DNA of 64,000 nucleotides, from the NCBI RefSeq assembly GCF_000026545.1, contig NC_011601.1. One strand, written 5' to 3'. A program made the position numbers. This DNA is from Escherichia coli O127:H6 str. E2348/69 (lineage in GTDB: Bacteria > Pseudomonadota > Gammaproteobacteria > Enterobacterales > Enterobacteriaceae). Positions within the stretch are counted from its first letter, which is position 1, and each line of letters starts with the position of its first letter. Below are positions 1 to 6,000 of this stretch, in pieces.

Positions 1-3000
1 AGGAGAAGATTGTCGCAATACGCAGCGGTTTATAGGTAGCCGATTTATTAGCGGCTTCTTCTTGTAACCGTTTAAACGTCGCATAATAGGCTTTCGCGGC
101 ATCCACGCTGCTCACTGCCAACATAGCATTAAAACCTTTTGAGCCAGGGAAGGTACGGTGGGTTTTCTGGCGGAAATTATTCAGAATATATTGCGTGATT
201 TCCTGAATACGCATGGGATGAAGAAACGCCTGCTGATTTTCAGCCGCACTTAGTTTTTTCTCGTCAGTTTCTGTCTCTAAAGACTTAAACTGTGGTCGCA
301 CATCGTTGTAGTCCACCTTGAATTTGAGCACTTTTTCGTCACGAATCGCATCGGTAATTACATACGAATGCAATTCACGACCAAATACGCTGGCGGTTGT
401 TTCTGAGCCTAAGGCGTTTTCCGGGAAAATAGGGGTGCCGGTAAAACCAAACTGATAATAGCGTTTGAATTTCTTCTTCAGGTTTTTCTGCGCTTCTCCA
501 AACTGGCTGCGGTGGCATTCATCAAATATAAACACCACTTGCTGATTATATACAGGCAGGTCGCTTTCTGCTTTCATCAGGTTATTGAGTTTCTGAATAG
601 TAGTGACGATAATTTTGTTATCGTCCTTATCCAGATTTCGTTTAAGGCCTGCGGTATTTTCCGAGCCGTTGACGCTGTCTGGCGAAAAACGCTGATATTC
701 CTTCATGGTCTGGTAATCGAGGTCTTTCCTGTCGACCACAAAGAAGACTTTATCAATAAAGTCCAGCTCTGTTGCCAGACGCGCGGCTTTAAAGCTGGTG
801 AGGGTTTTACCAGAACCGGTAGTGTGCCAGATATACCCACCGCTTTCCGGTTTTGACCAGTTCTTCGCTGTAAAGGAACTCTTAATTTTCCACAGAATGC
901 GCTCGGTGGCGGCAATCTGGTACGGTCGCATCACCAGTAGCGTCTGACTACTGTCAAAAACGCTGTAGTTCACCAGAACATTCAGCAGAGTATGTTTCTG
1001 GAAAAAGGTAGCGGTAAAGTCTTTGAGGTCTTTAATCAGCGTGTTGTCTGATTTCGCCCAGTTCATGGTGAAGTCAAAACTGTTTTTATCGCGCTTTGTC
1101 GTGTTGGCAAAATAACGGGTATCGGTGCCGTTAGAAATGACAAACAGTTGCAGATACTTAAACAGGGAATTTTCGCTGTTAAAACTCTCTTTACTGTAAC
1201 GATGTATCTGGTTGAAAGCCTCACGAATCGCCACCCCGCGTTTTTTTAGTTCGATTTGCACCAGCGGTAAACCATTAACCAGGATCGTGACGTCATAACG
1301 GTTAGCATGAGAACCCGTCTGTTCAAACTGCTGGATAATCTGCACCTTATTGCGCATGAGATTCTTTTTATCTATCAAATAGATGTTCTCAAGTCGCCCG
1401 TCGTCAAAAATAAAGTCGCAGATATAGTCGATATGGATTTTACGGGTTTTATCCAGAATACCATCGCTGGGGTTGTCCAGATACTGCTCCGTGAAGCGCC
1501 GCCACTCGCTGTCATTAAACATCACACCATTGAGGCTCTGAAGCTGTTCCCGAACATTAGACAGCATTGCCGACTGTGATTTTACGGAAATAAATTCATA
1601 ACCCTGATTCCGCAGGTCCTGAATCAGTTCACGTTCCAGGTCCGATTCGCTCTGGTAGCTGTCGCTTGTTTGCTCAGCTTTGATGTACTTATCAAGGACG
1701 ATAAAGTTATTGGATTCAGCAATGGTGTGTGTTTGATGAGTCATAGCGCATCCTTTGTGCCGCCTGGCAAGAGCCGGAAGGGCGTTAAGAGTGACTTCCG
1801 GCGCGTAAAAAATAGTCTATATACTGACCGGGTGTTAAGGTGGCCCGATCGGTAGCAATGGTCAATTAATTACTGACAGTTTCAGGTTTCGGGAAACTGA
1901 ACAGTAAATCACGGTAGTATTCGTATTGTTTCTGGCGCAACTCGATTTCACGCGGGAGACCTTCAGTGATGGAGTTGGTCAGGGTGTCGAATTTATCGAG
2001 TATTTCGACAATGCGAGCTTGTTCTTCTGAAGGTGGTACAGGTATTGGGAATTTTAAAAACATTGGTCGACGAAGTGAGGTAACCGATGAACTTACTGAT
2101 GCTTTTTGAATATAGGTAAAAAAATATGCTGTTATATAGTGATATACAAATCGCGGATTCATAAATGCATTTGGGACAATACGATATGCTCTCTGATGCA
2201 AAGCATATTTACCTTTAGCGTAATGAAATACCTTCCCCACCCCGGCACCATCTCCAGCTGTAATGATTGCTGTTTCATCAAAATCAAATACATTTAACTT
2301 TAATGGCTCACGTCCACGTGCATAAAAAATATATTTGCCATGTTCTATAGCATCTTGCGTATCATGGTTACCTGTTCCTATAACAGCCACTTCCCCCAAA
2401 GTCTTCCACTCAACCTCACCCTCTTTAAAACTCAACAACTGGTCACGATAGTAGTTGTACTGTTTTTTACGCATGTTAAGCTCAGCGGTAAGCTCAGCGG
2501 TAAGCTCAGCGGTAAGTGCAGTAAATTTATCCAGAATCCGAACGATTTCAGACTGGATGGCAAGGGATTTCTCCGGATTATCCGGGCAGGGGATGGGGAT
2601 TAAGAGCTTTTTTAGGTCGCCCATTGGTAGACTAATTACCGGGTTGCCGACAATTTTTTTGCTATAGTCTTTAACTATTTTACTTGATTGTAATAAATAC
2701 GATAAAAATCTAGGCGCAATTTTTTCCTTAATTGGTTTGATAGTGTAAACGCCTTCTTTGATATTCCAATTTATAGGATTTTCTTCAATTACCGCGATGC
2801 GTCCAACCGTGCCGGTTCCGGAGAACAATATATCTCCAGCTTCTAAATTAGAACGACCATTTATTATTTTTAATGCTCTATCATTTACTCTGTCTGTTTT
2901 ATCAAGAAAGACAACTTTGCCATTCTGGATCTCACGAACAGTTACGTAATATCCTTGGGCATCTAATGTATTTAAGCTAAAATTTTGGCGTGGGTTCAAT

Positions 3001-6000
3001 CCCGTTTTTAAGGAATGGATAACTTCTCCCAACATCTTCCACTCAACCTCAACCCCATCCAGCAATTTTCCCAGATAACTTAACTCGCTCATTTTTGCAC
3101 CTCGCAGCCTTCAATTTCAGCCACAATCGCATCAATATCTTTACGCAACTGGTCGATTTTGCTAACCGTAGTTTTAAGCTCTGCATTTAGCTCAGCAATA
3201 TTGATAATTTCGCGGTTATCTTTCGCTTCTACATAGCAGCTCACCGACAGGTTATAGTCATTAGCGACAACGGTCTCAAACGCGACAGATTTCGCCAGAT
3301 GAGCAACATCTTCCTTGCTGGCAAATACCTGCATAATCTGTTCGATATGGGCATCGGTCAGGATATTGTTGTTGGTCTCTTTTTTGAATAGTTCGCTGGC
3401 ATCAATAAACTGAACTTTGGTATCCGTTTTATGTTTAGACAGCACCAGAATATTTACGGCAATGGTGGTGCCAAAGAACAGGTTCGGTGCCAGTGAAATC
3501 ACGGTTTCGACATAGTTATTGTCAACCAGATACTGACGGATTTTCTGCTCCGCGCCGCCACGGTAAAAAATGCCCGGGAAGCAGACAATCGCAGCACGAC
3601 CTTTGGCAGAAAGATAGTTCAGCGCATGTAATACAAACGCAAAGTCAGCTTTGGATTTGGGGGCCAGAACGCCAGCCGGGGCAAAACGCTCATCGTTAAT
3701 CAGCGTCGGGTCATCGCTGCCAATCCATTTCACCGAATACGGCGGGTTAGAAACGATGGCATCAAACGGTTTTTCATCTCTGAAGTGCGGCTCAGTCAGC
3801 GTATTGCCCAGCTTGATATCAAACTTGTCGTAGTTGATGTTGTGCAAAAACATGTTCATACGTGCCAGGTTATAGGTCGTATGGTTGATTTCCTGTCCGA
3901 AAAAGCCTTCTTCAATGATATGGTTATCAAACTGCTTTTTAGCCTGCAACAACAGTGAGCCGGAACCCGCTGCCGGGTCGTAGATTTTGTTAACGTTGGT
4001 CTGCCCGTGCATAGCCAGTTGTGCAATCAGCTTGGAGACGTGCTGCGGTGTAAAGAACTCACCGCCTGACTTACCGGCATTTGCCGCATAGTTAGAAATC
4101 AGGAACTCATAGGCATCACCGAACAGGTCAATCTGATGTTCGTTGAAGTTACCAAGTTTTAACCCTTCAACCCCTTTCAGAACCGCAGCCAGGCGGGCAT
4201 TTTTATCTTTAACGGTGTTACCCAGGCGGTTACTGGTGGTATCGAAATCAGCAAACAAACCTTTGATGTCTGCTTCTGAAGGGTAGCCGTAAGCAGAACT
4301 TTCGATAGCAACGAAGATGCTGTTTAAATCTGCATTCAGTCTGTCATTGGTATTTGCTTTCGCCGCTACGTTGCAGAAAAGCTGACTGGGGTAGATGAAG
4401 TAGCCTTTAGTTTTGATGGCATCGTCTTTAATATCATCAGTAATTACGCTGTCATCCAGTTTCGCATAACAGATACTGTCATCACCGGCTTCAATATAGC
4501 TGGAAAAATTTTCGCTGATAAAACGGTAGAAAAGCGCGCCCAGAACGTATTGCTTAAAATCCCATCCATCGACCGAACCTCTGACATCGTTAGCAATTTG
4601 CCAGATTTGGCGATGAAGCTCCGCGCGCTGCTGAAGACTGGTCATTTTTTATCCTTTGAATGTGTTTTTAACGTCGGCTTTTGCCGGGATTTTACCGGAA
4701 GTTTTTTGGTTTTTCAGATTTGTATGATGGTGAGGAGGGGATTCAGTACCAGATTGTTAGTGCATCTTATTCAGCATTCACCGTTTGAGTCAGGAGGCTA
4801 TTTTATATGCCCATCGCCCATCCGTAGGTGATCAGATAATTTATTGCGAGTCACCTTCCCGATTTTCAATCTCATTATTTACCCAATATTTCACCAGAGG
4901 ATAATCCGTCTGCTACTAACGGCGAGTGTATTTTTTTACGGATGAAAGATTATGCAAACAGAAGCTGAAGTCTTAACCGATCACAACGAGATAATTCGCT
5001 CGACCAATATTGAGCGTATCGTCACAGGACGTGATAGCGCACTGAAGCTGATAGCGACGCTAATCCAAAAACTGGATGATATCTCCAGTCTGACATCCAG
5101 TATTGGCGGTGATGTGGCTGGAACCTGGGGAATGCGTAATGGATATGCCTTTGACTGCTGGCTGATGCAACCAACCGACAAAGCGATGTCGGCGATCACC
5201 CGCAATATCGATCGCAGCATCTGGCGCGATCTCATGCTGAAGTCCGGGATGTTGACTCTGATGGATGCCGAAGCCCGCAGTCAGTGGGCAAAGAACCTGG
5301 AGGAGGGCGATCTCCCGGCGATTAGCGAAGCCAACATCCTGAGTACCTTTGAACAACTCCACCACAATAAGCATGATGTTTTCGAACGTGGGATTATCAA
5401 TGTATTTAAGGGATTGAGCTGGGATTACAAAACCAATAATCCCTGTTATTTCGGTAAGAAGATTATCGTTAACAATCTGGTGAAGCATGACCGATGGGGT
5501 TACAGCCTGCACTGGGGCTGGCGGCGAGATCAGCTTGCCGATCTGGAACGGATGTTCTATCTGCTGGATGGGAAGGCCATTCCCGATAACCGGCATGATG
5601 TTGCGATTCGGTTTATGGACTTCGTTAGTGCTCACCCGCATGAGCAGGTATTTAATGACGATTTATTTGTCATCCGCTATTACCAGAAAGGCAGTGGACA
5701 CATCACATTCAAGCGACTGGATCTGGTGGATAAGATGAATGACATTGTGGCGAAGCACTATCCGTCAGCGTTATCAGCAAAATGAATGTCGTATGTTTGC
5801 TGTCAAAATGTCGTTACTGGAACCCTCTGAATTTCGGCATATCCATTTACTGGAAATAATACCTACCTGAAAAACCGTTGATTCCCTATGCAACTAGAAA
5901 CCGCACACAGGTTGAAAAAACGAGTAGCTATTTTACGTCTGAAAGAATGCTATAGCCTTCTCTGAGAGCCACCAACATCATGCGTTTTGCAGTTCAAAGT

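Follow-up and report, generated by a model that had tools for sequence, protein, structure and literature searches.

Introduction

Type IC restriction-modification (R-M) enzymes form a family whose members are grouped by similarity in sequence, by complementation and by the cross-reaction of antibodies (Loenen et al., 2014; PMC3874165), and in which the modular reassortment of target recognition domains (TRDs) has long been known (Gubler et al., 1992, as cited in PMC3874165). In EcoR124I and EcoR124II, two TAEL repeats in the specificity subunit go with an N6 spacer in the target and three repeats with an N7 spacer (PMC3874165). A 2025 review places type IC systems at a leuX-anchored 'hotspot 37' (4% of enterobacterial genomes) and never at the immigration control region (ICR) (PMC12707154). 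The present work concerns the hsdM-hsdS-hsdR operon at the left-hand end of a 64,000-nucleotide stretch of the Escherichia coli O127:H6 str. E2348/69 chromosome (GCF_000026545.1, contig NC_011601.1; hereafter the window). We have very little doubt that this operon is the complete and active, chromosomally encoded type IC (EcoR124-family) system of this enteropathogenic E. coli (EPEC) strain, and that it belongs to a defence island between leuX and nanS, at hotspot 37.

A type I locus was previously found in the then unfinished E2348/69 genome by Hobson, Price, Ward and Raivio (Hobson et al., 2008; BMC Microbiol 8:134; PMC2518929), who described HsdR (1038 aa, 97% identical to EcoR124I HsdR), HsdM (518 aa) and HsdS (408 aa) proteins, hsdR being located 122 nt downstream of hsdS. 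The same strain carries a second, unrelated type I system with other protein accessions in the RptR-RMS-DarTG-M48 island, where DarTG is embedded between hsdS and hsdR and control is exerted by the RptR repressor (PMC12255303).

Results

Organization and integrity of the operon

The features considered here are listed in Table 1. A first-pass annotation made from the window sequence alone had proposed the gene order hsdM-hsdS-hsdR without naming a strand, translational coupling of hsdM and hsdS through an ATGA overlap, and an hsdR gene following on the same strand after a gap of about 120 bp. All of this was confirmed: the three genes lie on the minus strand in that order, the ATGA overlap is found at 3089-3092 (hsdS ATG at 3092-3090, hsdM TGA at 3091-3089) and the gap measures 121 bp. 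Three chromosome assemblies of E. coli O127:H6 E2348/69 match the window with 100% identity over bases 1-9600. One of the records, NZ_LT827011, includes the DNA to the left of the window, and coordinates in the stretch of it used here are prefixed L001. In this assembly hsdR is an intact gene of 3117 bp encoding 1038 aa (L001:13628-16744), and hsdR is therefore not truncated beyond the window, an eventuality raised in the first-pass annotation; the product aligns over its full length to EcoR124I HsdR. All three open reading frames (ORFs), hsdM, hsdS and hsdR, are intact.

The part of hsdR inside the window encodes the PD-(D/E)xK nuclease motifs, QxxxY, a GSGKT Walker A motif and a DECH box, and HsdM contains both motif I (DPAAGSGS) and motif IV (NPPY). 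All of these HsdR motifs, together with the NPPY motif of HsdM, are situated within segments identical to EcoR124.

Table 1. Coordinates of the hsd operon, its sequence elements, the neighbouring genes and the symE-yjiA interval in the window.
Feature	Position	Strand	Description
hsdR, 5' part	1744..<1	-	581/1038 codons within window; translation; PADLOC REase_I for hsdR
hsdS-hsdR spacer	1745..1865	-	121 bp; presumed Pres promoter of hsdR and 5' UTR
hsdS	3092..1866	-	408 aa, specificity subunit; ORF listing; conserved regions of EcoR124 HsdS (7bst_A); PADLOC Specificity_I
TRD2	2037..2393	-	about aa 234-352; predicted to read second half-site; weak similarity to EcoR124 TRD2
TAEL repeats	2478..2513	-	three tandem 12-bp units ACCGCTGAGCTT (coding strand), encoding TAELTAELTAEL in the central coiled-coil
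TRD1	2598..3026	-	about aa 23-165; predicted to read first half-site; no alignment to EcoR124 TRD1
hsdM	4645..3089	-	518 aa, methyltransferase subunit; ORF listing; match to EcoR124II M (7bst_D); PADLOC MTase_I
hsdM/DUF4942 divergent intergenic region	4646..4951	.	presumed hsdMS promoter of the chromosomal form; weak consensus matches only
DUF4942 protein gene	4952..5785	+	277 aa; Pfam PF13708, E = 1.4e-68; divergent from hsdM
McrB-like (684 aa, 6147-8201) and McrC-like (8198-9508) genes	6147..9508	+	type IV restriction pair; RefSeq annotation
Phosphorothioated-DNA-binding restriction endonuclease gene	9571..10443	-	290 aa; NCBIfam NF045808 (437 bits; cut-off 180); PADLOC HNH
HNH endonuclease gene	10685..11230	+	181 aa; last gene before nanS; annotation; weak PADLOC mREase_IV match
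symE	41670-42008		
hsdR C-terminal remnant	42223-42432		210 bp
NERD/UvrD helicase gene	42661-44511		616 aa; PADLOC candidate C3a187, E = 2.8e-140
yjiA	44842-45798		

Assignment to the type IC family

Full-length HsdR aligned over residues 1-1038 with the HsdR subunit of EcoR124I (PDB 2w00_A; E = 0) at about 98% identity, 19 differences being counted in about 1010 residues of the alignment. Likewise, HsdM aligned over 518 of 518 residues with the M subunit of EcoR124II (7bst_D; E = 0) with six differences, corresponding to about 99% identity, whereas EcoKI HsdM was a remote match only (E = 2e-17 over the catalytic core). HsdS matched EcoR124 HsdS (7bst_A) at residues 1-25, 163-250 and 297-408, and differed from it in the TRDs. 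The three PADLOC models concurred with these assignments. As judged by their E values of 0, the subunit matches to solved EcoR124 structures are far above chance. The features found thus comprise the sequence similarity of HsdR and HsdM, an hsdM-hsdS-hsdR order with hsdR set apart, and an HsdS with the conserved regions and TAEL repeats of the family. On the strength of sequence identity, gene order and HsdS architecture, all of which fit the published definition, the operon is a true type IC (EcoR124-family) system, as the first-pass annotation had proposed from gene order and repeats, and nothing in the analysis contradicts this identification.

Restriction and modification by the locus

The primers published by Hobson et al. 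(2008) have exact matches in the window at 2616-2635 (-), 1501-1520 (+) and 507-527 (-), and the locus of that study is therefore the operon described here. The two primers used in constructing the hsdR deletion, at 1501-1520 and 507-527, fall in hsdR, and the deletion thus lies in the type IC locus of the window and not in the second type I locus. The resulting ΔhsdR strain, NH4, from which about 323 hsdR codons had been removed, showed a 10^3-10^4 gain in transformation by K-12-grown low-copy plasmids, and plasmids passaged through NH4 escaped restriction, indicating that modification is intact in this mutant (PMC2518929). In the data of the same study, pACYC184, pJW15 and pLAFR1 were subject to restriction and pUC19 was not. 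To the identity, integrity and order of the genes as observed here, the published genetics thus add restriction and modification in vivo.

An opposite view of the locus would be that of a decayed or silent relic, either an orphan methyltransferase accompanied by a dead HsdR or an operon that is not expressed. The classical hsd site of E2348/69 has in fact decayed to an hsdR remnant, and the poor yield of promoter scans (see below) could be read in the same sense. However, three full-length ORFs are present whose HsdR and HsdM products are 98-99% identical to biochemically active EcoR124 subunits, and the deletion of hsdR raises transformation up to 10^4, with DNA passaged through the mutant being protected (PMC2518929). 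The published genetics of NH4 have already refuted the relic, to which we accord next to no probability.

Some reservations attach to this reading, although none of them contradicts it. The window holds hsdR in part only, the gene being cut by the window edge; consensus promoter scans of the spacer and of the region upstream of hsdM gave matches no commoner than in shuffled sequence; and, because a second type I system is encoded elsewhere, total restriction in E2348/69 does not come from the type IC locus alone. For the same reason, two bipartite motifs are to be expected in any methylome of this strain.

The novelty that the first-pass annotation implied for the locus did not hold, as it was published and functionally proven in 2008 (PMC2518929) and type IC systems at leuX have been reviewed (PMC12707154). 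The system is thus already known and genetically tested, in a described hotspot, and is real but ordinary.

Putative promoter regions

The 121 bp spacer between hsdS and hsdR was 100% identical in all four loci compared (two chromosomal and two on P1-like plasmids). Its conservation fits a functional element, although it is no proof of one. A sigma-70-like sequence, TTAACA-18-TATTTT, is located in the spacer at 1838..1809 and is a weak match; following the precedent of EcoR124I, the promoter of hsdR is presumed to reside in this spacer. Similarly, a weak consensus site was detected 5' of hsdM at 4717..4689. The intergenic region 4646-4951 in which it lies is conserved between E2348/69 and strain Z1323HEC0423, and is unrelated to the DNA located 5' of hsdM on P1-like plasmids.

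Position of the operon at the leuX hotspot

To the left of the window the order is ahr, an intact tRNA-leuX gene, roughly 15 kb of phage-like genes, the last of which encodes a tyrosine integrase, 31 nt duplicated from the 3' end of leuX, and the hsdR stop codon. The 31-nt copy is found at L001 13373-13403, about 225 bp before the hsdR stop, with the intact leuX gene about 15 kb further left. The phage-like element (L001 1-13403; about 4730410-4745471 of NZ_LT827011) includes integrase, recombinase, DEAD/DEAH helicase and HNH genes, and is bounded by the intact leuX gene and the 31-nt direct repeat of its 3' end.

Given that a tyrosine integrase gene lies only about 390 bp from the end of hsdR, next to some 15 kb of phage-like genes, the operon might be taken for cargo of this integrase-bearing element that arrived with it at leuX. 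The 31-nt leuX repeat that bounds the element, however, sits between the integrase gene and hsdR, and the hsd operon consequently lies outside the element. Furthermore, strain Z1323HEC0423 has this operon immediately beside leuX in the absence of the integrase element, and its sequence agrees fully with that of E2348/69 between hsdR and the end of the tRNA gene, divergence setting in only past this point. Arrival of the operon as cargo was rejected on the basis of the position of the direct repeat and of the element-free arrangement in Z1323HEC0423, and we regard it as very improbable.

The resident type IC system of hotspot 37 therefore remains the preferred reading of the locus, a leuX remnant being found near hsdR and other defence genes alongside. 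Of 5426 complete E. coli genomes, 315 had the hsdR-leuX junction and 287 the junction between hsdM and the DUF4942 gene, so that these junctions occur in about 5-6% of genomes.

Specificity subunit and TAEL repeats

Tandem Repeats Finder (TRF) reported a repeat at 2477-2516 with a period of 12, 3.3 copies and a 100% match, of which three units are perfect (2478-2513). Based on the repeat-to-spacer rule of EcoR124I/II, three TAEL units predict an N7 spacer in the bipartite target of the E2348/69 system.

Among the best 120 HsdS matches, TRD1 was paired with another TRD2 in 25 and TRD2 with another TRD1 in about 80, and both TRDs were shared in 11, which is the modular reassortment familiar from this family; TRD2 also occurs on plasmid OX442409. 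The exact TRD1-TRD2 pair was present in five of the 5426 complete genomes, namely three E2348/69 assemblies and two Korean isolates, in the latter of which the gene is 12 bp shorter. The HsdS of Z1323HEC0423 is that of E2348/69 except for two TAEL repeats instead of three, that is, one 12-bp unit, and the two-repeat (2xTAEL) protein is recorded on 143 contigs. The 408-aa protein of E2348/69 has the accession WP_001293053.1, and examples of the 404-aa allele are CTW91530.1 and WP_024225533.1. The IncY P1-like phage-plasmid pLR-13_1 encodes the three-repeat form with one substitution. The exact 408-aa HsdS was not found by exact look-up in the protein collection. Because of the EcoR124I/II precedent, the E2348/69 enzyme should read the same half-sites as the common 2xTAEL allele with a gap one base longer.

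A further HsdS in the protein collection (P0001, on one 33-kb contig) has the same TRDs and the repeat TAEI-TAEI-TAEL, with two L-to-I changes, and may be either genuine or an artefact of sequencing through the repeat.

Comparison of these HsdS sequences indicates that the TRD pair is not private to E2348/69, both TRDs and their combination being widespread in sequenced strains. The recognition sequence had been called likely novel from its unfamiliar TRDs; since TRDs and combination are widespread, this proposal is weakened and we take it as no more than a conjecture. A methylome of E2348/69 was not found in the literature, and none of the type I motifs in the methylome papers on O145:H28, ST131, ST101 and UTI89/CFT073 was assigned to the E2348/69 HsdS TRDs.

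Mosaic identity pattern of the operon

In a whole-operon alignment of E2348/69, Z1323HEC0423 and the plasmid pLR-13_1, only 0-5 mismatches separated the three operons over some 3-3.5 kb in the centre, from about operon position 750 to 3700-4250. This central tract takes in hsdS and the spacer together with the adjoining portions of the two outer genes (the 3' half of hsdM and a 5' portion of hsdR), whereas the 5' end of hsdM and the 3' end of hsdR differ by 2-8% per 250-bp bin. The chromosomal and plasmid loci cease to be homologous about 3 bp 5' of the hsdM start codon at one end and a few codons short of the hsdR stop at the other, and their flanks are unrelated. Plasmid records with type IC operons numbered 1088, including many P1-like ones in which Phd/Doc, Lpa and terminase genes are neighbours, and such operons were also found on P1-like phages.

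These data are compatible with the type IC system proposed above and on their simplest reading the operon would in addition be a mosaic whose present hsdS allele was recently exchanged, by import or export, through homologous recombination with a type IC locus on a P1-like phage-plasmid. Such an exchange would account for an hsdS-centred tract that is nearly identical in two chromosomes and pLR-13_1 between outer gene ends that are 2-8% apart, for the lack of relationship between the flanks beyond the coding sequences, and for the frequency of type IC operons on plasmids and P1-like phages. On the other hand, the comparison covered no more than three or four loci, which do not reveal in which direction the transfer went, and a similar pattern would result if chromosomes underwent gene conversion with each other or if a shared allele were under strong selection. 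Because so few loci were compared, we give the exchange about an even chance.

At odds that we would likewise put near evens, the hsdS gene of E2348/69, with its 3xTAEL repeat and predicted N7 spacer, may have arisen very recently in nature as a spacer-length variant of the widespread 2xTAEL allele, for which N6 is predicted; the 12-bp unit that separates it from the Z1323HEC0423 allele is set in over 3 kb of DNA that is otherwise nearly identical. Phage-plasmids and the leuX locus would swap hsdS cassettes by homologous recombination, and slippage in the repeat would then provide a lineage with a private specificity of restriction and methylation.

Neighbouring genes of the island

The placement of the operon upstream of nanS, as stated in the first-pass annotation, was correct, nanS being located at 11238-12218. 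Since McrBC-like, phosphorothioate (PT)-dependent and HNH nucleases adjoin the hsd operon, the whole interval between leuX and nanS is regarded as a defence island. The McrB and McrC matches in NCBIfam are partial and lie under the curated cut-offs. In the McrB homologue the C-terminal AAA+ part alone matches K-12 McrB (117 bits; cut-off 637), and the protein probably carries a different N-terminal DNA-reading domain. The HNH endonuclease gene is intact in E2348/69, and only a 3' remnant of it is present in Z1323HEC0423.

The DUF4942 protein had no match among the PADLOC or NCBIfam models, and its gene was not present at the plasmid-borne type IC loci examined, where the hsdM-DUF4942 junction is missing. 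On both counts, a role for it as a recognized defence or accessory partner of the hsd operon was rejected.

The HNH gene is followed by nanS, nanM and nanC, and then by fim. On the minus strand, nanS is an intact ORF of 326 aa, 98% identical to NanS of another strain, despite which RefSeq labels it a partial pseudogene on NZ_LT827011; this label probably reflects an annotation or assembly difference. Between fimH and uxuA there is only a short pseudogene fragment (24516-24623). The gene gntP, which sits between fimH and uxuA on the K-12 map, appears to be deleted in E2348/69.

The classical hsd site

The operon, ending at 4645, lies about 37 kb from symE and hence does not occupy the ICR position of hsd alleles of types IA, IB and ID. 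In agreement with the first-pass annotation, which had placed the operon away from the symE-yjiA position and a different gene there, the region 42223-44511 was found to contain an hsdR remnant and a helicase gene. These are all that the symE-yjiA interval holds, and the ICR of this strain is therefore gutted. The 616-aa helicase shows weaker similarity to GajB, AbiO and Nhi, and its gene may constitute a single-gene defence system.

Discussion

By analogy with the EcoR124 family, hsdM and hsdS would be co-translated from one transcript, and the resulting HsdM2-HsdS1 enzyme would methylate adenines in a bipartite target whose half-sites are set by the two TRDs and whose spacer is set by the TAEL repeats. 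hsdR would be expressed separately from a putative promoter of its own in the conserved 121-bp spacer, and association of HsdR with the M2S enzyme would yield an R2M2S1 complex capable of ATP-driven DNA translocation, cutting unmodified DNA away from the site. Restriction alleviation would presumably, as in other members of the family, be independent of ClpXP.

The type IC system is the reason why E2348/69 resists K-12-grown plasmids and why the ΔhsdR strain NH4 exists, and its practical value has thus already been realized. Residual interest lies in the recognition sequence of the TRD pair and in the natural pair of two-repeat and three-repeat alleles within the possibly exchanged cassette. 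If the 2xTAEL and 3xTAEL alleles give N6 and N7 spacers, they would be the equivalent in wild-type strains of the EcoR124I/II pair known from the laboratory, and the hsdS exchange, if true, would be a concrete case of phage-plasmids and a chromosome trading specificity genes. Neither the N6/N7 pair nor the cassette exchange would alter the understanding of type I enzymes.

Comparison with known systems

The locus of Hobson et al. (2008) shows no sequence difference from the operon in the window, with the same protein lengths and a stated identity to EcoR124I of 97-98%. That study did not apply the type IC label, place the locus at leuX, note the TAEL repeats or determine the recognition sequence. 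As with the type IC systems of hotspot 37 (PMC12707154), the E2348/69 operon stands next to leuX among defence genes; in E2348/69 an integrase element separates leuX from the operon, an insertion that other strains lack.

EcoKI, a type IA system of the ICR between symE and mrr/yjiA, is also an E. coli type I R-M system and also lies in a defence island with an McrBC-type enzyme, but it differs from the E2348/69 operon in its gene order (hsdR-hsdM-hsdS) and locus, and its HsdM is only remotely alike. EcoprrI of E. coli CT196, which is associated with the prrC anticodon nuclease, is also of type IC, is likewise encoded on the chromosome and has three TAEL repeats; in E2348/69, by contrast, there is no prrC between hsdS and hsdR but only the 121 bp spacer. 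With Eco067II, a plasmid-encoded type IC system from the ST101 paper that recognizes CCAGN6RTTG, the E2348/69 hsdS has only the conserved regions in common. At the plasmid-borne type IC copies examined here, the DNA 5' of hsdM is unrelated to that of the E2348/69 operon.

EcoR124I and EcoR124II, the type IC prototype encoded by plasmid R124, are also among the closest known systems. They reside on a conjugative plasmid, whereas the E2348/69 operon is chromosomal, and both of their TRDs are unlike those of E2348/69 HsdS, which would entail different half-sites. They are alike in HsdR (about 98%), HsdM (about 99%), gene order, the conserved regions of HsdS and the presence of TAEL repeats, and EcoR124II (GAAN7RTCG) has three of these repeats, the same number as the E2348/69 HsdS.

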